IMG/VR virus record: IMGVR_UViG_2561511241_000010
Source: a virus
Lineage: Duplodnaviria; Heunggongvirae; Uroviricota; Caudoviricetes
Length of the DNA stretch: 37,472 nt
Direction: 5' to 3' (one strand)
Positions 698 to 37,472 of this stretch are shown here, piece by piece. How positions within the stretch are numbered: position 1 is the stretch's first letter; each line of letters begins with the position of its first letter. The translations under genes and the position numbers were made by a program. Below the pieces are notes generated by a model. The model was not told the origin of the DNA, searched no databases, and saw only the letters and a program-made list of their open reading frames with translations.

Positions 698-1060
698 GGG
701 GCTGATTCTGGATTCGACGGGATTTGCGAAACCCAAGGTGCATGCCGAGGGGCGGTTGGCCTCGTAAAAAGCCGCAAAAAATAGTCGCAAACGACGAAAA
801 CTACGCTTTAGCAGCTTAATAACCTGCTTAGAGCCCTCTCTCCCTAGCCTCCGCTCTTAGGACGGGGATCAAGAGAGGTCAAACCCAAAAGAGATCGCGT
901 GGAAGCCCTGCCTGGGGTTGAAGCGTTAAAACTTAATCAGGCTAGTTTGTTAGTGGCGTGTCCGTCCGCAGCTGGCAAGCGAATGTAAAGACTGACTAAG
1001 CATGTAGTACCGAGGATGTAGGAATTTCGGACGCGGGTTCAACTCCCGCCAGCTCCACCA
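698..1060 (+). ncRNA. ssrA: tmRNA (transfer-messenger RNA)
   Basis: Starts GGGGCTGATTCTGGATTCGACGGG and ends with tRNA-like GGTTCAACTCCCGCCAGCTCCACCA; internal tag frame 787..819 reads ANDENYALAA then TAA; 363 nt. Confidence 0.95.
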
Positions 1061-4303: not shown

Positions 4304-7300
4304 AACCCCATTCTGACACGCAGTACGTTATTGCTGTCATAGATACGAATGAGAGTGCTGGTTATCAGCATCCTCCCGCCCCCGGCCACGCCGTTAATTT
4401 CGAACGTTCCACTCTTATCAAGCTTCCAGCCTGCAGAACCAGCCACATAGTTATTCGACTGGATATAGTTGCCGATTTTGGCATTGCTGATGGTCCCGTC
4501 ACCGATGACCGTATCCCTGATAATGGTTTGGCCATTCTGGATAACGAACGGGAGCGTAACATTACCGCCTGCCTGGGTCATGACAGCAAAACGGTCAGCC
4601 AGGAACAGAACCTGTGACTGCATGCCCTCTGGCGTATTCTGAACACCAATGCCCATTCCGGCTGCGTACTGGTTGCCATTAGAATCAACAGCTACCTTGA
4701 TGCTGTACATTGCATTCAGGTTGTTATTGATGTCGGCTGATACCTGGCTGTTCTGGACAATATCTGCAGACTGGCCGTTAACCGTGACCTTAAGCGAGTT
4801 AATTTGCGTCGCAGACGCCTGGGTGAAGTCAGCAAGTGTCTTCGACAAGTCAGTGACATTCGCTATGTTTCCACCGGCACTGGAATCTAGGGTACGCAAC
4901 GACTCAGCGACAGCCTTACTGGCTTCGGCCATGACATTGTCGACTCGCTCAATACCGGCTTTATTATCACCATACTGAACGCTCAGAAGGTTGCGCTGGT
5001 TAACCTGTGCGAGCGTGCTGGTTATCAGCGCGATGGCATTGTTTTGAATACCACCGTTGGCCTTATCCGTTCTTGCTGCCAACTCCTCCAGGCGGGACGC
5101 CACTGACGAAGTCGTGTCTGTGACAACCTGCCGCAGCGTGGTGATATCAGCAGTGTTTTGTGAGCTGGCTTGTTCAGCTGCGTCTGCCTTACCTGATGCA
5201 GCATCAGCTTTACTCGAAGCCGAATCAGCTTTATCAGAAATGACCTGAGTACTCGCAGTGAGCTGATCAACAGCAGTTGCCCTTGCCTGAGCTTCATCTG
5301 ACAGAGCCTGCCTTACCTCGGTAATTCCCGCTTCGTTCTGCGCTGTTTTTGCCTCAAGACGGATAACATCCGTTACGCGTGCCTCCGTCTCAGTAGCGAT
5401 AACCTCCCGGAGCTGTTCGAAAGTCGCAGAGTTAGCGCCCTGTTGGGCTGTCTGGCGCACGACAACATCGGCAATAGCCAGCGCGTTGCCGATGATTGCT
5501 TCTGCTGTCTGCTTATTCGAACCTACGGCGGCAGCCAGCCCATCGGCGTTCTCCTTAATTGCTTCAGAAAACTCGGCCAGTTTCTCGCTACTGTCTACAG
5601 CACTTTCAATCAGATCCTTAAATACCTCGGAATCTTTAATCTCCTCCAGGATCGCATCGGTGATATCGGATACATCGATGCTGGCCTGACCGCGCACAAA
5701 GTCTGTATACCCTGATTCGTTGCCGCTGCGGTCCACCAGCTGCGCGCGATACCAGAAAATCTGCCCAGCCTTAAGGCCCATCTGCTGATATTTGCGCTGC
5801 GGGTAAGGCACATCGGCCAGCAGTATCGCATCGTCTTCGGTACCGGTCAGGCTGTACTGAATTTCCGTCTTCAGCGTGTCGTCGGTATTCGCCGGGAATC
5901 CCCAGTTCAGCTCGATACCAAATACAACGTTTTCAGAAGCGATGAAGCCAACCGGCTTCGGTGGGCTGCCCACTTTACCCGTCAGCGTTTTCTCTTCTGA
6001 AGAGCCCCATCCGGAAGAAATTTCTGCGGCATTGATTGCGCGCACGCGCACCAGGTAGCGCCCTGCATAAATCCCCTGGACGTCGAATGATGTGGTGGAG
6101 CTGCGCGGCACGTTAACCCAGTTCCCGTCGTTGCGGCGCCATTGCGCTTCATAGGCGATAGCGTTCTGCGCCTGGTCCCAGCTCACGCGCATGGTCTCAA
6201 CGCTGATATTTTGCTGCACCACGGAAAACGAGCTGATCACGATGTTCGAAGGCGGCGACTGGTTACCCGGCGGGATTACACTCACCGGCCGCTGGTCGAT
6301 GATGGCTCCGGTATCGATGCGGGCATATTTATCCGGGTCGTGCCATGCGCCAGTAATCGAGAAAGTGCCATCATCCTTTTCGGAAACGCTGACAACACGA
6401 TACTGCTGCGCATAGAGCTCGTCAGATTCAACCACCCAAACAGCTTCGGCCTGTGGCGTCTCACTGTATGCCGTGGTGACTGTGACTGATTCCCCGTTTA
6501 CGGCCTGAATGGTCCTGCTCTGCGACACTCCGGATGGTAAGTTGAGAATAAGGCGATCACCTGCTGCTGCATCTGCCACGCGGTCAAGTTTGATAACGCG
6601 ACCGTTAACGGCGCTGATGCGGCCGCCCATAACCTTTCCGGAAAGCAGCTCGTCTGCCACGGCGATGATGTAGCCCGGCTGCGGAATGTTGCCGTCCAGC
6701 CCGACATCAAACGAAACAACACGATCCTTGTTGTTGGTGAGAATACCCCAGCGTCCCTTTCGGTTAGCTTCTGACTGCCTGGTGCAGCCGATGGCTGTCA
6801 TTTCCAGCTGATTGAAGCCGTACCGCGCCACCAGCGCCTGCTCAAATACCGGCTCCATCGCGTCGGCATAAGCGTTCCCCGGATCTGACCATGAAACCAG
6901 TGCTGTGGTGTAGCGGCTTTTCGTGGTGCTGCTCGAATAGGTGAAGCGACCGCCAACAACGTTAGCGCGCGTGTAGCTGTAATCAACATCGCGCGGCATG
7001 TCAGCCAGGGCCACAATCTGATCCCCGCCCCAGTAGGTCATGCCACGGAAGATAGCGGCAAAATCACGCAGGACTGTGTAGGCGTCGTTCCGGTCCTGAA
7101 TGTACACGTTGCAGGTATAACGTGGTTCGGTACCGTTGCCCCCTTTGCCGTCTGGTACCATCTGATCACAATACTGGGCAACCTGATAAAGCGTCCATTT
7201 ATCAATATTCGCAGCGGTCAAACGGTGCCCGAGGCCGAACCGGTCAGAAACAACCAGATCGTAAAAAATCCACGCAGGGTTATCCGTCCATGCCCACTTA

Positions 7301-18927: not shown

Positions 18928-20205
18928 TTAAGCCCCGTTATTACGGGGCTCTTTGTTGGTTCCTAAATCGGTGATCGGCACGTATTGCGACTGGCGCATA
19001 GCCACATCGCCACCCGGCAATGGCGGGAGGTTGTCCGTTCGTCGCATCTCGTTGATGGTGCGTAGCCCTGCCTCTCCCATTGCCTTCATAAAGGCTGCGC
19101 GGGATGCCGAATCGCCCCTCAGCAGGCCGTCGAGATTGTGCTCAGCATGAATGCGGCCAACATCCTTAGCGGGAATAAGCCACCGCTGAATGCTGTTTTC
19201 CCACCGGGAGATATAGGGCTGCAGGGTGTACTGCAGGAAGCCGAGATTCTGCTGCTCAATGCCCGATCCCCAGCTCGTTGATTTCTCGACGTCGCCGACA
19301 AGGTGAGGCGGTACGCCAAAGAATCGCGCCAGTTCACTTACCTGAAATTTTCGGGACGCCATCATTTCGGCATCCTGCGGCGTTACGCCAATTGCCGATG
19401 TGGAAAAGCCCGCTTCCAGAATCCAGAGGCGTTTTTTAACCGGACCGCCGGCGATCTCTTTGAAGTTCTCTTCGACCTGCGAGCGCTGCTGTTCAGTCAG
19501 CACTTTTTCGCCGGTTGAGAGGATTTGCGGAGACTTGGCGCCGTTGGCAAAGAAATCTCGCTGCTGGTCCTCCATCGCAACTGCCACACCTGCCGATTTA
19601 CAGGCAAAAGCAATTGGTGACAGGCCGACCAGCCCGGTGAATCCGAAACCTTTAAGGTGAAAAATCTCTCTCTGCGAAAAGTCGGCGTATTCGCTGTCGC
19701 GTTGATAGCGATAAACCACTTTTTTCCCGACGAGTTTCACATCCATATTGGCAGACTGAAGCGGGAGAAGGCTGATCACGTCACCCGCGCTGTTGCGGTC
19801 CACCAGTGCATACGCGTTACCGTAGAAACAGAGCTGCATCGTCATGGCCTCCCTGAACTCCTGGGCGGTCATGTACTGATTCGGTGAGTAGCGCAGCAGT
19901 CGCGCCAGCGGATTGCTCAAACCCACTTTTTTGCGGTTGTCATTCTGGTCGGTTTCGAAGACATCAAGCGGTAAGCATGCCGTGAGCGTTGAAATCAGGC
20001 TCACGCAGCGCCAAACCGTCGAAATTTGCAGTATCCGTTCATCGTTAATGGATGAATCGCCCAGGTGTCCATAGGCCGAAACAGGCCCCGTCTGTGAGCC
20101 CTGATTTGGGGTGACTAAACGCCCGCCGACAAACCAGGACTGCAGCCTTGCCCACCAGCCGTTATTGGTTCGCAGGTCAATCGTGTATTTAGGTTCTTCC
20201 ATCAC
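18928..20205 (-). CDS. Portal protein
   Basis: 425 aa between large terminase and protease; 4-nt overlap with the terminase gene. Confidence 0.9.
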   Translation of the reverse strand: MMEEPKYTIDLRTNNGWWARLQSWFVGGRLVTPNQGSQTGPVSAYGHLGDSSINDERILQISTVWRCVSLISTLTACLPLDVFETDQNDNRKKVGLSNPLARLLRYSPNQYMTAQEFREAMTMQLCFYGNAYALVDRNSAGDVISLLPLQSANMDVKLVGKKVVYRYQRDSEYADFSQREIFHLKGFGFTGLVGLSPIAFACKSAGVAVAMEDQQRDFFANGAKSPQILSTGEKVLTEQQRSQVEENFKEIAGGPVKKRLWILEAGFSTSAIGVTPQDAEMMASRKFQVSELARFFGVPPHLVGDVEKSTSWGSGIEQQNLGFLQYTLQPYISRWENSIQRWLIPAKDVGRIHAEHNLDGLLRGDSASRAAFMKAMGEAGLRTINEMRRTDNLPPLPGGDVAMRQSQYVPITDLGTNKEPRNNGA

Positions 20206-21716
20206 ATGCTCAGCGGTCGGAAAATGAAGTCGTCGAAGTCACCACCCTGTTCGGTAACTTCCCCATTAGCAGCACCAACGGACATTGTCATTGCGACCAT
20301 GCCATCAATACGGCCCGTTGCTTTGGATTTATCCAGCTTACGGTTGCCAGCAGCATCTTTTACGATCACCGCGTTCCAGGCACACATGGTTAACACCGGG
20401 TGCATGCCATGCCTCACCCGCCCGTTAAGCATCAGTGACTCAAGGGTGTCTACAGCCGGGCCCATATCCTTAAAGCCCTGGCCGAACTCGACCAGAGGAA
20501 GGCTCAGGCCGATGTCGTCAGCCTCTTTCCTGAACTGGTCAATGCGCCATCGGTCGAAGGCCATCGAAGTGAGGTCAAAATCACCGATGATTTCGGCGAT
20601 GTCGGCGACCACGAATGAGTAATCGACGGACGCACCGGGCGTGGTACGCAAAAGCCCCTCCCTTGCCCATACGTCATAGGGCGCGCGGTCTGTTTTGGAC
20701 CGTGCTTCCAATGTCTTTTGTGGGGTCCAGAAGAAGGGAAAGATATCCCAGACACCATCATCAGCCTCACCAGCGATAACCAGCGCCGTTAAGTCGTTCC
20801 TGGCCGACAGATCCAGCCCGGCATACCATTTCCTCGGTGTGTTAACCGGTACTCCACCGCACAACTCCCACACGCTGCGGGAGATAAACGGCGATACGGT
20901 CGACACTCTCTGATTAAGGTTGAGATTTCGGAAGGTGTTCTCAAAGCTTGGCATTCGGCCTGCCATTTCAGCCTGGCGCGCCATGTCTTTTTCAGATCTG
21001 AACGTTCCCAGCGCCGGGTTCGCAGCAAGCCAGGATTCTCGCTTACTGATATCAGCGTCTTTTGGCGCTTCGTAAACGTGGCAGACAATGTGCGGGTCTT
21101 TCGATTTGACCGCATCATCAATCCAGATGCTCAACAGGTCGGCATCGTTCGCCGCCTGGGTGCTGATAACGATAAGAAGCGGATTCTCATGCGCACCCTG
21201 GGCTGTAGTAATCGCGTCGATAAAATCATCCTGCGGCCCCCTTACCTGTCCGGTTTCGTCCAGAATCGCCAGAATCGGGGAAAGGCCGTGTGTGGTTTTA
21301 CCCTCAGCAGATAGCGCCTTGTATTCGACATTACACGGCAACCCTATTAGCTTTTTGCCACTGGGAATTATATGCACTAACACCTGCAGGTCCGGGTTCA
21401 GGTTCACCATCTTCACCGCGAGGTTGAAAACGATGGATGCCTGCTCGCGACTAAGCGCGCCGCTTACGATCTGGGTATTCTGTACCGCCTCTGGCCCCAC
21501 CAGATGCGCCAGCAGGATACCGGCTATCAGCCCTGTCTTTCCGTTTTTGCGCGCGATGCTCAGTATCGCTTTATCGGTTCCGACTGGATTGTCGTAAACC
21601 GCCAGGATGAATTCTTTCTGGAAGGGATCAAGCCTCATAGGCTTACCCAGAAGCTTGCCTTCCGGCACGATGCAATAGCGCTCAATGAACGCTATTACAC
21701 GCTCACCTCGCGTCAT
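20202..21716 (-). CDS. Terminase large subunit
   Basis: 504 aa with N-terminal ATPase region and C-terminal nuclease-like region; position. Confidence 0.9.
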   Translation of the reverse strand: MTRGERVIAFIERYCIVPEGKLLGKPMRLDPFQKEFILAVYDNPVGTDKAILSIARKNGKTGLIAGILLAHLVGPEAVQNTQIVSGALSREQASIVFNLAVKMVNLNPDLQVLVHIIPSGKKLIGLPCNVEYKALSAEGKTTHGLSPILAILDETGQVRGPQDDFIDAITTAQGAHENPLLIVISTQAANDADLLSIWIDDAVKSKDPHIVCHVYEAPKDADISKRESWLAANPALGTFRSEKDMARQAEMAGRMPSFENTFRNLNLNQRVSTVSPFISRSVWELCGGVPVNTPRKWYAGLDLSARNDLTALVIAGEADDGVWDIFPFFWTPQKTLEARSKTDRAPYDVWAREGLLRTTPGASVDYSFVVADIAEIIGDFDLTSMAFDRWRIDQFRKEADDIGLSLPLVEFGQGFKDMGPAVDTLESLMLNGRVRHGMHPVLTMCAWNAVIVKDAAGNRKLDKSKATGRIDGMVAMTMSVGAANGEVTEQGGDFDDFIFRPLSM

Positions 21717-28636: not shown

Positions 28637-29437
28637 CTATTTGCTCCGATCATATAAATAAGTTGTCGCCTTCTCAAATTCCACTGCTGCGTGAAGCTCC
28701 CCCTGGCGCAGAGTGTCCACCAGCATTTCATAGAAGGGTTTCCAGTTGCGTGACCATGAGGACTGATGGAGGTCAGGGAGACGCTTCAGAATGGCGCGGT
28801 GTACCGTAGCCGAGGAGATAGCAGAGAAGCCATTACCAGAGCAACGTTCACACGTTTTGAAAACCGGTGCGCCGCGGTCTTTGGTCGCTTTGCGGTCCAA
28901 CACTTCGCCTTTACCGCCACACCTGCACCGGGCAAGGATCACTTTCTTTCCTCCGCATGTTCCGCAAACCCTATTCACCAGCTCATTTTTAATCTTCGGG
29001 GCCACAACTTCGGCACCGTCGGCGTCGAAAATACCAGGATGTTTAACCACATCCTCATTCCCGGAGATAAACCCGGTACCGCTGCAACTGTGACATGTCA
29101 CGCTGGTAGCCGCCGAACGGGAGTAATCAGCAAAGGCAAATTGTGCCAGCATCTGCATACACCATCCGAACTGCCCACCAGCTGCTTTGCGCACATTCTT
29201 CGGTGCGACATCCATCGCATATCGCGCCAGCGCCTGAACTGCGAGCTGTTCATCCGTTTTGCTGATTCCCGCTTTACCGAAGAACGCCGCCAGGCCGAAG
29301 CGCGCACGGCTGCTAGTGGTGCCAATTGCCGCCATTACATCTGTTCCTGTAAGGCGGTCCGGAGAGGTTCCTTTCACGTCGTCGCTGATGTGCATTCCTT
29401 GTGGACTAAAATGTTTGAGCGATGATTCCAGTTTCAT
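28637..29437 (-). CDS. Q-like late antitermination protein (zinc-finger)
   Basis: 266 aa with several CxxC pairs (CHSCSGTG, CGTCGG, CRCGG, CERCSG); located between replication genes and the lysis cassette, followed by a terminator. Confidence 0.5.
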   Translation of the reverse strand: MKLESSLKHFSPQGMHISDDVKGTSPDRLTGTDVMAAIGTTSSRARFGLAAFFGKAGISKTDEQLAVQALARYAMDVAPKNVRKAAGGQFGWCMQMLAQFAFADYSRSAATSVTCHSCSGTGFISGNEDVVKHPGIFDADGAEVVAPKIKNELVNRVCGTCGGKKVILARCRCGGKGEVLDRKATKDRGAPVFKTCERCSGNGFSAISSATVHRAILKRLPDLHQSSWSRNWKPFYEMLVDTLRQGELHAAVEFEKATTYLYDRSK

Positions 29438-30405
29438 GCGGCCACCTGCTGTTTTTTATAGAAAACCAGCTCACGAACCTGATCGCCGTTCATGAGCATA
29501 TTGTTGAAATCATCGTGATCCGGCCAGTACACGCTCACGCGCTGCAGGTCATTTTTAGCCATCAGATTTGCGTGAGCGCATTCGCAGGCAGCAGCTAAAC
29601 CCGTAGCGCTTGTCTCGTCGCGGTCGGCAAAAATAATCAGATGCTTAACGCCTGCCGGGACCCGGAATTTCTTCATAAAATTGGCGGTCATAGTCGCCCA
29701 GGTATTCACTTTGTAAATCTGATGTGCAGACAGCGCAGTTTCGATACCTTCAGCGATGCCAAGTGTGCTGGCGACCGGGAACATACGGATAGCGACCGAA
29801 CGAGCGTGATCAAGATAGTTATCTTCCTGCAGCGATTTCTGCCGCTTGGCGCTGGCCCCGATGTCAGCTTTCTTTGCACCATCCAATAACGTCTGATGGA
29901 GGTAACACAGCTCCCCTTTATCGTCTGTTGCCAGTGAATAAATAGACTGGTATACCCGTCCGTTATGCCGTTGCTTGGGGTTGAGTCGCACGGCCTCAGC
30001 CGGAAGCTGATAAATACCGCGTGAATTCAGGTATTCAGCGCCGGATGTACCGCGCAGAGGAGACATTTTTGCAAAGTTGTTGAGTACCTTTCTCCGCAGC
30101 TTGGAGGCGTCGCTAGTCTCGGGAACTTTGTCACGTCTGAACGTATTGCCGATCAGTGCATCGATTTCGCGGCAAACCTCGTTGAATGGTTTGCCCTGGG
30201 TTTCGGTAACCAGCTTAAGCCCGTCACCGCTGCCACAGGTGCAGATCCATGTTCCCGCGCCGTCGCGGTTATCGATGCGGAACTTTCCAATCGAATCACA
30301 CAGCGGGCACTTCCCCTTAAAGTGATTTTTACCGGTGATCGGCGGCAGTCCGTAATGCTCAAAAATCATGGCCCAATGGCCTTTTGCTGCTTCTACCGTT
30401 TTCAT
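29434..30405 (-). CDS. DNA primase (zinc-ribbon plus Toprim)
   Basis: N-terminal CPLC...WICTCGSG zinc ribbon; Toprim-like IAEGIETALS...IIFADRDE. Confidence 0.75.
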   Translation of the reverse strand: MKTVEAAKGHWAMIFEHYGLPPITGKNHFKGKCPLCDSIGKFRIDNRDGAGTWICTCGSGDGLKLVTETQGKPFNEVCREIDALIGNTFRRDKVPETSDASKLRRKVLNNFAKMSPLRGTSGAEYLNSRGIYQLPAEAVRLNPKQRHNGRVYQSIYSLATDDKGELCYLHQTLLDGAKKADIGASAKRQKSLQEDNYLDHARSVAIRMFPVASTLGIAEGIETALSAHQIYKVNTWATMTANFMKKFRVPAGVKHLIIFADRDETSATGLAAACECAHANLMAKNDLQRVSVYWPDHDDFNNMLMNGDQVRELVFYKKQQVAA

Positions 30406-32021
30406 GCTCGTTTTCCTAACTGCTGTCTGATATCACTGACGCGATTAAGCGCCTGCTGAATTCTTTCCTGGGTAGGCAGCTCTTCTACCTGTGCCTGCTG
30501 GCGCTGCTCTTTTTCGATTCGTCTAGCGAAGCTGATCCGCTTGTGCGTAATGAAGTTTGAAACTGTTGGCGTGATGTCCATCGGGTAATCGCTCAGTCCG
30601 TTCGGCCATTCGCCAAAACGTTCGCGGAAGGTGTGAGCACACCAGGCATCGCTGACAGGCTTTTTCCCCAGCGATACGCGCTGGCGCTGATAGAATTTGA
30701 TCTGACTCCACCAGGCTTGTTTCTCTGCCTTCGTCGGCTGGCGCTGCTCGCCCCCAAGTTTTTTGAGTTTTCGCCCGGTGTCGGTATCAATGTCCTCACC
30801 GGCAAGCGGCTTGTGGCCACATTTAGGGCAGACATAGACGCCAGCAGGCTTCATGAAGTGGCATTGCGAGCATTCGTGAGGCAGCTTTTCTGCTCGTTCC
30901 TCAGCTGCGCGGCGCGCGCCCTCCTCCATCCCGTCTGATTTACCCGGAAGATCGTCATATTCGATAGAGTCCGGATAACCTAGGCGGTGCACGGTTCCGC
31001 TGTGATCGAAGATGAGGCAGGACTCTTTACCCGGAGCGGTGCGCAAGCCACGCCCGAGCGCCTGCAGCCAGCGAATTTCGCTCTTAGTTGGCCTGGCGTA
31101 GATGATGCAGCGAACATCGCTGTCGAAACCGGCAACCAGCACCCCTACACTGACGATGATTTTTGTGGCGCCAGTTTCGAAGCGGTGAATGATGGTTTGG
31201 CGTTCTTCCGCAGGCGTATCTGCAGTCATAACCTCTGCATTTACGCCAGCTTGGTTAAACTGAATAGTCAGAAAATTAGCGTGGTCTACGTTGACGCAGA
31301 ACGCGATTGTCGGCAGGTCCCGGCCGTTCTCCAGCCAGTTTTGGACGATATCGCCCACCAGCGTTGAACCGCACATGATCTCCGCCAGCTGCGCCTCGTT
31401 GTAGTCGGTACCGTACTGCAGGGACGGAGAGGTTTTAACCCCTTTCAGATCCGGCTTTGTGGGCGCGTAAAATTCGTATTTGCTCAGGTCGCCGCGCTGG
31501 ATCAGCTCGCCGATGGTGGTTGGCTTAATCAGTCGATCATAGTATTTTCCCAGGAACGGGGAAAACGGTGTCCCCGACAGGCCGATCACTTTCACGCCTT
31601 TTTCGCGCAGGCGTTCGATATCCTGCAGGATGCGTTTTTTCCGCAGGTGAGCTTCGTCGATAATCAGCAGATCGATATTGTCAGGAAACACGCGACGAAT
31701 AAGCGTATCGGCGCTGGCAATTTGTATTTTGAGGGAAGGATCATAGTTTGGGTGATCCGCCCATACATAGCCGATTTCATCACCCGGCAACCCATACTCC
31801 ACAAAACGGTTTGCTGTTTGGGTTATGAGGATCTGGTAAGGCGCGCAAAACATTACACGCATGCCACGACTAACGAACCCAGCAACGATGAAGGCGGCCA
31901 GTCCTGTTTTACCGCTGCCCGTCGGCGAGTACACCATGAAGGTTTCTGTATCCTTCCAGTTACGGCGCAGCTGGTTAAGTGCTCGTTCCTGTGCAAAATT
32001 CGGTGTGATCGTCAGCTGCAT
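30402..32021 (-). CDS. Superfamily 2 DEAD/DEAH-box helicase
   Basis: Walker A SPTGSGKT, DEAH box (LIIDEAH), C-terminal CSQCH...CPKCGH zinc-finger-like motif. Confidence 0.85.
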   Translation of the reverse strand: MQLTITPNFAQERALNQLRRNWKDTETFMVYSPTGSGKTGLAAFIVAGFVSRGMRVMFCAPYQILITQTANRFVEYGLPGDEIGYVWADHPNYDPSLKIQIASADTLIRRVFPDNIDLLIIDEAHLRKKRILQDIERLREKGVKVIGLSGTPFSPFLGKYYDRLIKPTTIGELIQRGDLSKYEFYAPTKPDLKGVKTSPSLQYGTDYNEAQLAEIMCGSTLVGDIVQNWLENGRDLPTIAFCVNVDHANFLTIQFNQAGVNAEVMTADTPAEERQTIIHRFETGATKIIVSVGVLVAGFDSDVRCIIYARPTKSEIRWLQALGRGLRTAPGKESCLIFDHSGTVHRLGYPDSIEYDDLPGKSDGMEEGARRAAEERAEKLPHECSQCHFMKPAGVYVCPKCGHKPLAGEDIDTDTGRKLKKLGGEQRQPTKAEKQAWWSQIKFYQRQRVSLGKKPVSDAWCAHTFRERFGEWPNGLSDYPMDITPTVSNFITHKRISFARRIEKEQRQQAQVEELPTQERIQQALNRVSDIRQQLGKRA

Positions 32022-32449
32022 TGTGCGGACCCCGCGGTGATGAGATAATAATTCTGTGATGTGGTTTTCATGGATTCCCCCTCACATGGCTGGTGGCCTC
32101 CCCAAAGGCTGCCAGCCTCCCTTCTGATTCAGCTCCCCTGAAAAAATCACTCTTCCAGAAAGAACCCTTTTTGTTTCTCAGCGCCTGAGCGCCTTGTACT
32201 GGTTTGCTGATACGGGCGTTTTTTTAATTGCGCCCTTAAGACAGTGATCTACTTAACCAATGGATCTCTCCTGTTGGAAAAGACCCTGTTCCTACCCCTA
32301 CACCCAATCCCCCCTTACCCCCCTTTCCCTCTTCCCCATAAAAACGTACTACTTACCTAGTACGAACGGAGAATTGAGTCAGTGGGTTGCCAACCTGAAC
32401 AGGCACCTTTAAGCCTGTTTTTGTCCGGGTACCTTTAAACCCACAACAA

Positions 32450-32752
32450 TCAGGAACGCGGTGACGTTCCGGCCAGGGGAGGTTCGGCGGTATACCCCTG
32501 TAAAGCCCTGCCGTGATTTCTCACAAACAGGCGAAGCCGCATATTTGCTTCATGCCTTGCCCGGTTCTCCTTGCGGTATGAAACGGGCTCGGCTTCGAAC
32601 GATTCCTGATACACAGCTGCATAACGCTGAATGGCTTTTTGTCGTGCTGCTGGCGTCAGGCTCAGTAACTGCTGCTTGATCCATTCTTCATCTGCAGATG
32701 CGTAAACAGATGGGAGCAGACCGTGATCAGGCCTCATCCCGTGCAACGTCAT
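32450..32752 (-). CDS. Hypothetical protein in the cII-equivalent position
   Basis: Start chosen at Met 32752 (GAGG ribosome-binding site) rather than the table start, which would overlap cro; about 100 aa with a basic C-terminal part. Confidence 0.4.
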   Translation of the reverse strand: MTLHGMRPDHGLLPSVYASADEEWIKQQLLSLTPAARQKAIQRYAAVYQESFEAEPVSYRKENRARHEANMRLRLFVRNHGRALQGYTAEPPLAGTSPRS

Positions 32753-32948
32753 CTGAAAATACCTCGTCCAAACTTGTATCCAGGCCAAGCTGTTTAAACG
32801 CGCTGACGATCCGCTTTCCTACTGCAACATCAGGAATCCTTCTTCCTGTTTCGTAGTGGCTAACGGCCCCCTGAGAGCTATCAATCAGCGCGGCCAGCTC
32901 TCCCTGAGTTACCTTTGCTTTGCGTCTAAGGCTCTTGATTCCACTCAT
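32727..32948 (-). CDS. cro: Cro-like HTH (XRE-family) regulator
   Basis: Helix-turn-helix segment VTQGELAALIDSSQGAVSHYETG; divergent from cI across an operator region. Confidence 0.7.
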   Translation of the reverse strand: MSGIKSLRRKAKVTQGELAALIDSSQGAVSHYETGRRIPDVAVGKRIVSAFKQLGLDTSLDEVFSDDVARDEA

Positions 32949-33045
32949 TCGTTTAGTCCCGCATAAATAATACATAACGTACTATACACACTTACAAGAA
33001 TAATACAAAATGGAAGTTGCTCACTAAATACGGAATGTAATAATC
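32949..33045. promoter_or_regulatory. OR-like divergent promoter/operator region between cro and cI
   Basis: AT-rich 97 bp with motifs AATACATAACGTA (32969..32981) and AATACAAAATGGA (33002..33014), both recurring inverted near 33813..33850. Confidence 0.55.
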
Positions 33046-33714
33046 ATGGCTATGAAACAGAGATGGCAGGACCTGGCCAAAACCAGGATGAAAGAAGTCG
33101 GCATGACTCAAGAACAGCTGGCAGAAGCGCTCGGCATAACGCAGGGCGGGCTAGGCCATTGGTTAAATGCCAGACGTGAACCGAACCTAGAGGTTATAGC
33201 GAAGATTTTTAACATATTGAAAATGCCCGGCTTCGTAGTAAACGCTGACGGCACGGTCAGCGACTCAAGAGCCGATCACAATGTAAGTTTTAATAGCATT
33301 AACGAATCCAAAGGAAGTTACCCTGTTATAAGCTGGGTTAGCGCTGGAGACTGGATGGAAGCAGTAGAACCTTATCACCGTAGAGCGATAGATCGCTGGT
33401 ATGACACCACCGTTGAATGTTCAGAGGATTCGTTCTGGTTAGACGTCAGAGGCGATTCCATGACATCACCAGCAGGGCTGAGCATACCGGAAGGGATGGT
33501 GATACTTGTCGATCCCCAAGTGGAAGCAATCAACGGAAAATTGGTTGTAGCGAAACTTGACGGTGACAATGAAGCTACATTCAAAAAGCTTGTTATCGAT
33601 GCCGGTCAAAGATTTCTAAAACCCCTCAACCCCCAATACCCAATAATCCCAATCAATGGCAACTGCCGTATTATAGGGGTTGTGGTCGACGCAAAAATCA
33701 CCAACCTTCCGTAA
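33046..33714 (+). CDS. cI: CI-like repressor (HTH plus S24 LexA-like peptidase domain)
   Basis: N-terminal helix-turn-helix (MTQEQLAEALGITQGGLGHW); C-terminal GDSM serine motif and downstream lysine, as in LexA/CI autocleavage domains. Confidence 0.9.
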   Translation: MAMKQRWQDLAKTRMKEVGMTQEQLAEALGITQGGLGHWLNARREPNLEVIAKIFNILKMPGFVVNADGTVSDSRADHNVSFNSINESKGSYPVISWVSAGDWMEAVEPYHRRAIDRWYDTTVECSEDSFWLDVRGDSMTSPAGLSIPEGMVILVDPQVEAINGKLVVAKLDGDNEATFKKLVIDAGQRFLKPLNPQYPIIPINGNCRIIGVVVDAKITNLP

Positions 33715-36146: not shown

Positions 36147-36345
36147 TTGCGTACCTCTTTCAACCTACTGCCGGGACGCCGGAGAAACGGTTGAAGCCGT
36201 TAACAAACGGATACAAAGGGGGTTATGGAAAGAGGGTGTCCATGTATTAAAAGTCGATGGCGTTAAAGAACGCTGGATAGACTTAACGGAGGTTTCAAAG
36301 TGGGCAAGAAAGAACAAGGATCATTATCTCTCCCAAGAGGAGTGA
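36136..36345 (+). CDS. xis: Excisionase
   Basis: Start at internal Met 36136 (GGGAGG ribosome-binding site); 69 aa; resembles lambda Xis in its winged-helix segment; overlaps the int start. Confidence 0.6.
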   Translation: MSLDCVPLSTYCRDAGETVEAVNKRIQRGLWKEGVHVLKVDGVKERWIDLTEVSKWARKNKDHYLSQEE

Positions 36346-37472
36346 CCATTCGCCAGCATAAAACTGGCGATACCCTGGTGATCACATTCACCTACAAGGG
36401 GGTTCTCTGCCGGGAGCCCCTTTCCAGAATGGAAGCAAACGCGCGCGGCGTGAAGTATGCCGAGCGCCTGCTGGGGGAGATACAGAACCAGATCGCCGGC
36501 GGCACATTCGATTATGCGAAATACTTCCCCACCTCCAAAAAACTGGAGCTGTTCGGGGTAGTGAAGAAAACCAAAAATATTAAGTCCTACCTGGACGAGT
36601 ATCTGAAAATCTGCCAGAACCGCAACCTTTCGCCGTCCACTATTGGCGGTTATGAAAAGTGCCTGTCTGCGCTATCTGCGCTGCACAAAATGCATGTCTC
36701 GGAACTGACCCCTGCGGTCCTCAAAAACTGGATCGCCAGCAGAAAAACAAAGCTGAAAACGATCAGGAATAACCTCTCGTTTCTGCGCAGCGCCATAGAT
36801 GAAGCGGTGACAGACGGCCTGCTGACTATCAACCCGGTAACCCTTGTCAGCGCGAGTCGGTACCACGTGATCGACAGCAGCCCGAATAGTGACGATTACG
36901 AAGTTGATCCGTTCACACCAGCGGAAATCAGCGCTATTTACCAGAGCTGCAGATACCAAGAGTGGGAAAACCTGTTCCGTTTCGCATTCAATACTGGTTT
37001 ACGCAGCTCTGAGCTGTGTGCGTTGCGCTGGCCTGATCTCGACAATATCGCTAAAACAGCTCACGTTCAGGCGGCAAGTGTTGTTGGCGTTCTGAAAGGT
37101 ACCAAAACAAAAGCCGGTACCCGTAAAGTAGAATTAAACAGCGAGGCGCTGGCCGCGCTGCAGACGCAGAAACAATTCACTTTCATGAAAAGCGAGTTTA
37201 TTTTCAGCGATCCCAAAACGGGTGAGCCCTGGGCGAACGCCGACGCGATACGAAAAAAAGCATGGGTGCCAACCCTCAAAAAAGCTGGCGTTCGATACCG
37301 TAACCCGTACCAGACCCGCCACACATTCGCCACCAGACACATTAGCCAGGGCGTAAACCTTTTCTGGCTTGCCGGGCAGATGGGGCATAAAGGGCCGGAA
37401 ATGCTGTTCCGCAATTACGGTAAATACCTGGCTGAATACGACGGGAAAACCGCCATTTCTGCAGCTCTGTAG
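36300..37472 (+). CDS. int: Tyrosine integrase
   Basis: 390 aa; C-terminal catalytic region with RHTFATRHISQG and LAGQMGH...Y motifs; stop codon is the last three bases of the window. Confidence 0.9.
   Translation: MGKKEQGSLSLPRGVTIRQHKTGDTLVITFTYKGVLCREPLSRMEANARGVKYAERLLGEIQNQIAGGTFDYAKYFPTSKKLELFGVVKKTKNIKSYLDEYLKICQNRNLSPSTIGGYEKCLSALSALHKMHVSELTPAVLKNWIASRKTKLKTIRNNLSFLRSAIDEAVTDGLLTINPVTLVSASRYHVIDSSPNSDDYEVDPFTPAEISAIYQSCRYQEWENLFRFAFNTGLRSSELCALRWPDLDNIAKTAHVQAASVVGVLKGTKTKAGTRKVELNSEALAALQTQKQFTFMKSEFIFSDPKTGEPWANADAIRKKAWVPTLKKAGVRYRNPYQTRHTFATRHISQGVNLFWLAGQMGHKGPEMLFRNYGKYLAEYDGKTAISAAL

Follow-up and report, generated by a model that had tools for sequence, protein, structure and literature searches.

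Where does replication begin in a lambdoid prophage that encodes its own helicase and primase and no counterpart of lambda O and P, and is the non-coding gap upstream of its helicase gene part of the answer? We address this question for a 428-base gap (positions 32022 to 32449) in the viral record IMGVR_UViG_2561511241_000010 of IMG/VR, a stretch of 37,472 nucleotides (nt; hereafter the window, meaning this whole stretch) that holds a nearly complete lambdoid prophage adjoining a transfer-messenger RNA (tmRNA) gene. A reading made from the sequence alone (the sequence-only reading) had proposed the gap as a replication origin or a regulatory leader for the helicase-primase operon. The observation behind that proposal is real, non-random and biologically meaningful, and the interpretation is reasonable although unproven. 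The gap is a deeply conserved, multi-part non-coding control region, a strongly constrained cis-acting part of the replication module. Its upstream two thirds (~32190-32445) would form a cis-acting core, most likely a replication origin set in a stretch transcribed from pR, a tentative reading to which we give slightly less than even probability; the leader half of the proposal remains a live rival.

The gap fills exactly the space that separates the helicase ATG (minus strand, 32021) from the open reading frame (ORF) phrog_852, whose stop codon is at 32450-32452. It lies inside an early rightward (pR-type) operon in the order cro, phrog_852, gap, helicase, primase, antiterminator Q, all on the minus strand, with the pR promoter placed from gene order alone; the sense strand of the gap is therefore the minus strand of the window. 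Pfam and PHROG scans of the window ORFs detected no O- or P-like gene in the early region, which agrees with the earlier claim that both are missing, and the gap indeed holds no sizeable ORF: its largest frames (50, 38 and 31 amino acids, aa) all lie on the plus strand, are disrupted by homopolymer-length differences in relatives, and none is conserved. The C/T-rich run quoted by the sequence-only reading is present (exact span in Table 1) but, because the genes here are on the minus strand, what is transcribed is a polypurine tract of G runs, and the inverted repeat next to it is followed by TTTTTAT. With 30 C in 50 nt on the plus strand, the tract is the maximum of the window (next value 25; 99.9th percentile 24); its GC skew is -0.94, and it shows a G-quadruplex-type pattern with a G4Hunter score of 2.07. 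The 15-mer GGGGGGTAAGGGGGG lies within it at 32309-32323.

To describe the constraint on this region, relatives were collected from 80 viral-contig loci, 17 genome loci and the annotated phages Fostie, YP3, ENT39118 and Fels-1, and conservation was expressed as mean pairwise identity in an alignment of 59 distinct gap sequences. The G-run tract (0.965), the block that follows it (0.943) and the loops of the hairpins described below (~0.98) are conserved about as well as the first and second codon positions of the helicase gene (0.946 and 0.964, vs 0.687 at third positions). Within the tract the constraint falls on the runs themselves, as 2 of 30 G columns vary vs 14 of 22 non-G columns (p = 1.4e-5). 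A coding tract (ATG GGG AAG ...) was ruled out because the lengths of the G runs change among relatives (G6/G7). The block after the tract carries the conserved GGTTAAGTAGATC together with two GATC sites; its UCUUUUCC pairs with GGAA at the tract end, and GGTTA(A/G)GTAGATC is common to the Fels-1, type C, Eru1 and Xenorhabdus relatives. The hairpin with an A7 loop that comes next takes the compensatory form GGGCA...TGCCC in Fels-1 and is lost in some type A relatives.

This conservation reaches well beyond close relatives. The core, G5-6-TAA-G5-6 followed by GGTTARGTAGATC, is kept where helicase identity is 66-77% (type C, Xenorhabdus and the Eru1 Stx2a phage ArgO145), and it always sits between a phrog_852 homologue and the helicase. 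For example, ArgO145 has an unannotated phrog_852 homologue, then GAGGAGGGGGTAAGGGGGTGGAG, then CATAGGTTAGGTAGATCAC upstream of its helicase, Xenorhabdus prophages (helicase 66-67% identical) carry GGGGAAGAGGGG...GGGGGGTAAGGGGGG and TAGATCAC, and other divergent contigs (helicase 68-77%) retain the exact 15-mer. Compared with eru1A, the helicase of Stx2a phages, the helicase of the window shows 66% identity. In a Colwellia relative with a helicase 53% identical, the element is absent. The folded part of phrog_852, the gap, the helicase and the primase are co-inherited across differing immunity regions, and the N-terminal end of phrog_852 and all sequence upstream of it differ between relatives. 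Comparison of the sequences points to phrog_852 as an unannotated conserved gene that would be part of the replication module; its predicted fold consists of three helices, the third arginine-rich. The family is elsewhere annotated just as 'hypothetical protein', and the ArgO145 homologue is found at KY914478.1 ~20126-20419 (L409 1332-1625), between cro and an annotated hypothetical gene.

The two CCTTTAA motifs reported from the sequence alone were found at 32405-32411 and 32431-32437, in a 14-nt direct repeat, and they are the loops of two hairpins that had been missed, HP1 and HP2, which share the loop UUAAAGGU. HP1 folds in both RNA and DNA predictions, and of the six alignment cells in which a transition breaks its Watson-Crick pairing, every one reads G·U, and none A·C, on the sense strand. 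The outer pair of HP2 shows the compensatory variants A-U, G-C and U-A, and an inner pair changes from C-G to U-A in ENT39118. These hairpins belong to a family with the loop UUAAAGGY, which comprises 50 distinct instances on at least six unrelated stems (including CGGGU/ACCCG, CAGGC/GCCUG, CUGAC/GUCAG, AUGAC/GUCAU and GGUC/GACC) in one to three copies per locus; in the family as a whole, the five pairs nearest the loop are Watson-Crick in 239 cases, G·U in 14 and A·C in 1. Likewise, the three inverted repeats of the window show G·U variants in 10 pair columns and A·C in 2 across relatives. The covariation of HP1 and HP2 is true and their wobble bias strand-specific, as expected of a structured RNA or single-stranded DNA hairpin in general. 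Since G·U variants outnumber A·C, selection on the hairpins acts through the sense strand, whether this is RNA or displaced non-template DNA. The string TTAAAGGT occurs three times in the window vs 0.75 expected, and the third copy, at 19648, has no hairpin. At 32385-32395, between HP2 and the third inverted repeat, stands GGTTGGCAACC (as read on the sense strand), a near-palindrome of 11 bp; it is kept in most type A relatives and is not strictly palindromic.

The strand of the wobble changes also bears on a reading in which the C-rich plus strand is the functional one, as a small RNA with C-rich motifs or as a Rho rut site that stops antisense transcription into cro and cI. About 54 nt with 30 C and almost no G are an ideal rut composition, and HP2 is followed by TTTTTG on the plus strand of the window. 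However, that T-run is lost in most relatives, the wobble changes are compatible with the minus and not the plus strand, a rut site needs composition and not fixed run positions, no Rfam match was obtained, and no plus-strand promoter was found in a promoter scan that also missed pR; we regard this reading as very improbable. In particular, a plus-strand small RNA ending at HP2 was rejected, given the unconserved T-run and the wobble bias to the minus strand.

The third inverted repeat behaves differently from HP1 and HP2. The perfect 7-bp repeat CGTACTA-N6-TAGTACG (here HP3) is real and lies 2 nt above the position at which the sequence-only reading had put it. Its arms are invariant over the 59 sequences, its spacer is variable and its core pairs show no covariation; divergent members keep it as GTACTAG-N4-6-CTAGTAC. 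An imperfect second palindrome of the same type, ~150 nt downstream, is conserved in the alignment with the family consensus GTATCAG-CAAGGT-AGTAC, takes the form GTACTAG-CAAGGT-GATAC in type C, and is represented in Xenorhabdus innexi by TATCAG three times, then TACTAGTAC. GTAYYAG occurs twice in the gap vs 0.19 expected. Invariant arms, a variable spacer and a second copy ~150 nt away make up what looks like the pattern of double-stranded-DNA binding sites. The heptamer TAGTACG of the HP3 arm also occurs in the cro/repressor operator-promoter region (32966-33025), which is probably a coincidence, as HP3 is kept in relatives whose immunity regions differ.

Two related palindromes ~150 bp apart with invariant arms would also suit an internal middle promoter placed between GTAYYAG operators, at which a module-specific, DNA-looping regulator would act and from which the STM0899-like gene of some relatives, the helicase, the primase and Q would be transcribed. 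Weak -10-like hexamers can be seen by eye 3' of TAGATC (TATAAG in ArgO145, TAATAG in Fels-1, TATAGG in Xenorhabdus). The hexamer is not kept in type A (TCTTAA), however, no -35 is recognisable, and a sigma-70-like consensus scan of both strands of 31500-33300 was empty, which is weak evidence because pR was missed as well. As such a promoter would also leave the G-run tract and the strand-biased hairpins unexplained, we consider it improbable.

HP3 and the T-run that follows it further raise the possibility of an RNA leader of the delayed-early genes, in which attenuation, antitermination or processing would set the expression of helicase, primase and Q. The hairpins with the UUAAAGGU loop could be bound by a phage protein, e.g., through the arginine-rich third helix of phrog_852, HP3 and the U-run could act as a partial terminator like lambda tR1, and the G-rich segment could pair alternatively with the pyrimidine stretch before HP3. 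The conserved loop on at least six unrelated stems and the sense-strand G·U bias agree with such a leader, as do the Xenorhabdus members, in which hairpins with own stems and a different conserved loop, UUUAGCC, accompany a diverged phrog_852. HP3 with TTTTTAT passes a minus-strand terminator scan, with three GC pairs only and as one of 3 matches vs 2.0 expected, and Xenorhabdus lircayensis has an unrelated hairpin followed by T8 at the same place, ahead of the G tract. The HP3 flanks CCUCAUA and UAUGGGG can lengthen the stem into the first G run of the tract, and their counterparts in Fels-1, CTCATTG...CAATGAG, preserve the pairing and covary with respect to type A. The map position matches that of lambda nutR/tR1, and there is no room for a nut-like site earlier, because cro and phrog_852 overlap. 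Moreover, the end of the gap nearest the helicase is plainly a leader for translation, as described below.

Other observations speak against an RNA leader. The T-run is missing from Fels-1, and in several relatives it is broken up; the invariant stem of HP3 and its copy ~150 nt off are better fitted by DNA binding sites; the fold z-score is just -2.3; and the best Rfam hit of the gap, over gathering and permissive thresholds, has an E-value of 4. By eye, no boxA-like sequence lies next to the hairpins, and a scan of leftward-operon ORFs revealed no N-like gene. A nutL-type twin of the hairpin motif was also sought, and none is present in the leftward operon or in the rest of the nearly complete prophage. 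Finally, a leader leaves the fixed G runs unexplained over such evolutionary depth. Because the covariation of the hairpins and their G·U bias fit an RNA leader equally well, it stays a live rival, one that we consider possible if on the unlikely side.

At the variable spacer, Fels-1, MS20657, the Eru1 phages and X. innexi carry an extra gene of 122-125 aa (STM0899-like, phrog_1347) that is absent from the window, which splits the gap into an upstream element that moves with phrog_852 and a helicase-proximal translation leader. The extra gene is located at L006 2596-2964, L005 2612-2986, L409 1833-2210 and L099 ~1396-1770, and its sequence has, by eye, a PD-(D/E)xK-nuclease-like look. Its presence at this point suggests that the gap might be non-functional, a decay or deletion remnant of the STM0899-like gene, as the corresponding segment of the window (32131-32195) drifts near the third-codon rate. 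A remnant, however, would cover at most ~65 nt, alignment of the segment to the Fels-1 gene is no better than with shuffled sequence, and the rest of the gap is strongly constrained and lies outside the position of the gene in all relatives. We find this origin of the gap hardly credible; for the gap as a whole it is refuted by the conservation data, and it stands only for 32131-32195.

Downstream of the spacer, the sequence at 32012-32117 is not origin-like; it is an ordinary leader for translation initiation that includes an upstream ORF of 19 codons. The sequence-only reading had overlooked this ORF (32071..32012). Its stop overlaps the helicase start, which suggests that the two are translationally coupled. 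It is conserved in the 59 relatives and in Fels-1, with an early stop in YP3 and a 20-nt deletion in one contig (L061), and it is replaced by a longer ORF in Xenorhabdus. The hairpin at 32088..32117 is kept in Fels-1 and phi467-type phages, which differ further upstream. The strong ribosome-binding site of the upstream ORF is able to pair with CUCAUC inside the ORF.

For the upstream two thirds, an origin is the best fit because of the linkage to the module, the palindromes of the DNA type, the run-specific conservation of the tract, the absence of other candidates and the sharing of a motif with iteron origins, described below. The rest of the early region showed no other iteron cluster and no tandem repeats, in a window that spans nearly the whole prophage. 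The sense-strand bias of the hairpins would also fit an origin that is transcribed, since a displaced DNA strand and an RNA share the same sequence. From the anatomy, constraint, covariation, strand bias, synteny and motif sharing reported here we infer that replication may start in this core and how it could do so. After induction, transcription from pR would run through cro and phrog_852 into the gap, where the sense strand, as RNA or displaced non-template DNA, would fold into the loop-conserved hairpins, to be recognised by a protein specific to the module, which might be phrog_852, the primase or the helicase. A core of ~140 bp would lie between the two GTAYYAG palindromes, and within it the G-run tract (G6-TAA-G6 and flanking runs) would be strand-asymmetric and hard to reanneal, held as a hybrid of G-rich RNA and C-rich DNA and/or as a G-quadruplex in the displaced strand. 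Through this asymmetric region the SF2 helicase and the Toprim primase could reach single-stranded DNA.

Several findings weigh against an origin. There is no iteron array of at least 3-4 direct repeats in the gap, just two 14-nt repeats and two GTAYYAG palindromes, and a consensus scan for DnaA (TTWTNCACA) and IHF sites (WATCAANNNNTTR), allowing at most one mismatch, gave no match there. The lowest GC content in the gap is ~0.42-0.45, at 32200-32260 and 32340-32380, with A7 and T5 runs and no long A/T block, and GATC sites are no more frequent than expected. The gap does directly adjoin phrog_852 and the helicase, of which neither is a recognised initiator (O-like or DnaD-like). Covariation of the hairpins, with G·U favoured in the sense strand, would be expected of an RNA element, HP3 followed by the T-run resembles a terminator, and Fels-1 has a degenerate GGGGAGGGGGAGGAG in which the exact 15-mer is missing. 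It is because classical marks of an origin (an iteron array, DnaA or IHF sites, a strong A/T block) are missing that we stop short of even probability for the origin and leave the RNA leader the share given above. Among plasmids, the module was found only on whole phage-sized episomes or large plasmids and on no small replicon. A literature search on the origin of this module and on the 15-mer returned only papers on the Eru units, which define no origin, and papers on mitochondrial genomes; the papers defining the Eru units name no origin, no non-coding element and no phrog_852 (PMC8044961, PMC8951638).

The 15-mer also occurs outside this family. A scan of viral contigs for GGGGGGTAAGGGGGG gave at least 120 loci, 25 of those listed being from the helicase-primase family; such counts are lower bounds from which no enrichment figure can be derived. 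Among the matches listed, 99 occurrences are in unrelated contigs; 41 of these fall within an open frame of 150 aa or more on the C-rich strand and 10 within one on the G-rich strand, compared with 18 and 28, respectively, among the listed matches of a control of the same composition (GGGGGGAATGGGGGG). Eleven of these genes (227-385 aa) were examined closely, and there a C/G run, a pyrimidine-rich stretch and obvious iterons border the motif. A Pfam scan of 10 of the eleven placed N-terminal HTH_36, DnaD_N, Lin1244_N or DUF1376 domains in seven and gave no match for three; the domains of the seven are typical of replication initiators and represent four different families. In these initiator genes (loci L117, L120, L124, L135, L143, L170, L176, L201, L205, L209 and L222) the motif reads C6-TTA-C6 then G5-6 and lies in the linker-coding part, adjoining an A-rich stretch and iterons. 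Among the matches listed, it is translated in all three frames (PPLPP 20, PLTP 12, PPLTPP 4, PPYPP 5), which argues for selection on DNA and not on the peptide. A C-run and iterons stand beside the motif in 16 of 114 listed matches vs none of 60 for the control. In E. coli K-12, ydaU of the Rac prophage (DUF1376; L408 4540-4660) contains repeats, an A-rich stretch and then CCCCCCCTAAATCCCCCCCGGGGG, the variant C7-TAAAT-C7-G5. Rac carries an active origin, oriJ (PMC3945230).

These associations must be set against others. A second control with an ATA spacer (GGGGGGATAGGGGGG) has at least 120 matches, is as abundant as the motif and shows an intermediate association. The 15-mer is also found between a sigma-70-like promoter (TTGACA-17-CATAAA) and the gene for the terminase small subunit (contigs L118 ~4570-4700, L166, L153, L121 and L113), and the G-rich strand is antisense in the initiator genes vs sense in the gap, so that its orientation to transcription is not shared. 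The 15-mer occurs in more than one context and is not specific to origins. By analogy, G6-TAA-G6 might be a general, previously unrecognised core feature of phage origins, non-coding in the Eru1/Fels-1-type module and linker-coding, in any frame, in many unrelated initiator genes, that would act in the manner of conserved sequence block (CSB) II, with a persistent G-rich RNA:DNA hybrid or quadruplex, formed when it is transcribed, stalling or ending RNA polymerase and handing a primer or opened duplex to helicase and primase; we regard this generalisation as doubtful, with only a small chance of being correct.

Comparison with known systems places the module close to Eru1, the replication unit of the Shiga toxin (Stx) phages TL-2011c, ArgO145 and phi191, which has been described as a gene pair and as non-lambdoid (Llarena et al. 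2021, PMC8044961; PMC8951638). The window has the same order of repressor and cro, SF2 DEAD/DEAH helicase and 323-aa Toprim protein, likewise with no O or P. Differences are that the Eru1 phages have the STM0899-like gene between the element and the helicase, G5 runs where the window has G6, neither the UUAAAGGU hairpins nor the GTAC palindrome, and a further gene after the primase (the DUF1367 gene eru1C in TL-2011c), whereas in the window Q follows directly, the primase stop overlapping the Q start (Q being of the Antiterm family).

With the iteron origins that lie in initiator genes (ori-lambda in O, Rac ydaU and those of uncultivated phages) the gap shares a position inside or adjoining replication genes. 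In ydaU and the uncultivated phages, as in the gap, a GC-run element (C6-TTA-C6 then G5-6) borders a strand-asymmetric A/T-rich stretch beside repeats, with the same 15-mer; the element of the gap differs in being non-coding and in lacking three or more iterons and an O/P, DnaD or DUF1376 initiator. To our knowledge, ori-lambda carries no such run motif. Vertebrate mitochondrial CSB II and ColE1 RNA II are elements that form R-loop or G-quadruplex primers. The gap resembles them in style of sequence only, with two or more long G runs a few bases apart on the non-template strand downstream of a promoter, and, by analogy, transcription could end or stall at the hairpin and U-run directly before the tract; the literal string CCCCCCTTACCCCCC matches passages in papers on vertebrate mitochondrial genomes, as a match of the string only. 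Among the differences, the promoter pR lies ~650 nt upstream, and the polymerase is the multi-subunit enzyme of the host.

Lambda nutR-tR1 and HK022 put resemble the gap in map position, with early regulators on one side and the replication genes and Q on the other, and in having conserved-loop stem-loops followed by a terminator-like hairpin. The gap differs from lambda nut in having no boxA (by eye), N-like gene or leftward twin, and its loops are of 8 nt and of another sequence. The ssiA and ssiB sites of RSF1010 (used by the RepB' primase) and the complementary-strand origin of phage G4 are comparable as strand-specific hairpins with conserved features beside genes for a dedicated helicase and primase, whereas both gap hairpins are on the same strand, 26 nt apart, and share no sequence similarity with those sites.

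Fels-1-like prophages have the Eru1-type module, and so do the Stx2a phages found in highly virulent E. coli, among them the TL-2011c lineage; replication of Stx2a phages drives the dosage of the toxin gene. The gap supplies a bounded candidate of ~250 bp together with defined targets for mutation, namely its G runs, hairpin loops and GTAYYAG palindromes, by which the question of an Eru1-type origin becomes directly testable. If the G-run motif were a general feature of origins, shared with those embedded in initiator genes, it would add a structural element to the picture of iterons plus an A/T-rich region and provide a sequence handle for origins in uncultivated phages. If instead the gap were an RNA attenuator, it would be a switch that times the expression of replication genes and Q, and hence of toxin.

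Table 1. Positions of the elements of the gap and of the genes around it in the window.
Feature	Position	Strand	Remarks
tmRNA gene, complete	698-1060	+	Sole Rfam 15 match above the gathering threshold
Zn-ribbon/Toprim primase	29434-30405	-	Pfam and PHROG matches
SF2 DEAD/ResIII helicase	30402-32021	-	Pfam and PHROG matches
19-codon upstream ORF MKTTSQNYYLITAGSAQCS	32071-32012	-	Stop overlaps helicase start (ATGCAGCTGA)
Shine-Dalgarno GAGGGGG	32083-32077	-	Serves the upstream ORF
Hairpin GGCUGGCAGCC-UUUGGGGA-GGCCACCAGCC	32088..32117	-	Just 5' of the ribosome-binding site of the upstream ORF; inverted repeat, in consensus fold
Variable spacer	32131..32195	-	Identity ~0.70 (0.708), near third-codon level; indels
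Imperfect second HP3-type palindrome GTATCAG-CAAACC-AGTAC	32196..32213	-	~150 nt downstream of HP3
A7-loop hairpin GGGCG-CAATTAAAAAAA-CGCCC	32214..32235	-	Most A/T-rich part of the gap, local GC ~0.42
Block after tract, UCUUUUCC, then GAGAGATCC-ATTGGTTAAGTAGATCAC	32244..32283	-	Identity 0.943; includes GGTTAAGTAGATCAC
G-run tract (C/T run on plus strand)	32284..32337	-	Runs G4, G3, G6, G6, G3, G4, G2, G3
T-run TTTTTAT after HP3	32338..32344	-	Weak intrinsic-terminator-like signal with HP3
HP3 palindrome/hairpin CGTACTA-GGTAAG-TAGTACG	32345..32364	-	Arms invariant, spacer variable
HP2	32398..32419	-	Stem AACAGGC/GCCUGUU, loop UUAAAGGU, same as HP1
HP1	32426..32443	-	Stem (U)GGGU/ACCC(G), loop UUAAAGGU; first CCTTTAA motif
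phrog_852 (PHROG 852)	32450..32752	-	100-aa ORF, no known function; directly upstream of the gap
cro-like helix-turn-helix gene	32975-32727	-	
cI-like LexA-family repressor	33046-33714	+	

The gap is 100% identical in E. coli ETEC1749. The helicase of the identical ETEC1749 prophage is annotated by NCBI as a frameshifted pseudogene; the helicase ORF is intact, with 539 aa, in the window and in phage Fostie, and has 552 aa in E110019-type relatives. At the left end of the prophage a tail-fibre gene stands beside the tmRNA gene, and at the right end the integrase gene (36300-37472, plus strand) runs off the edge of the window. A second G-quadruplex-type pattern, GGGATTATTGGGTATTGGGGGTTGAGGGG, lies antisense to the repressor gene at 33622-33650 (minus strand); by chance, the window would be expected to contain about one. 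The cro/repressor operator-promoter region also contains a 27-nt imperfect direct repeat, AATAATACATAACGTACTATACACACT.

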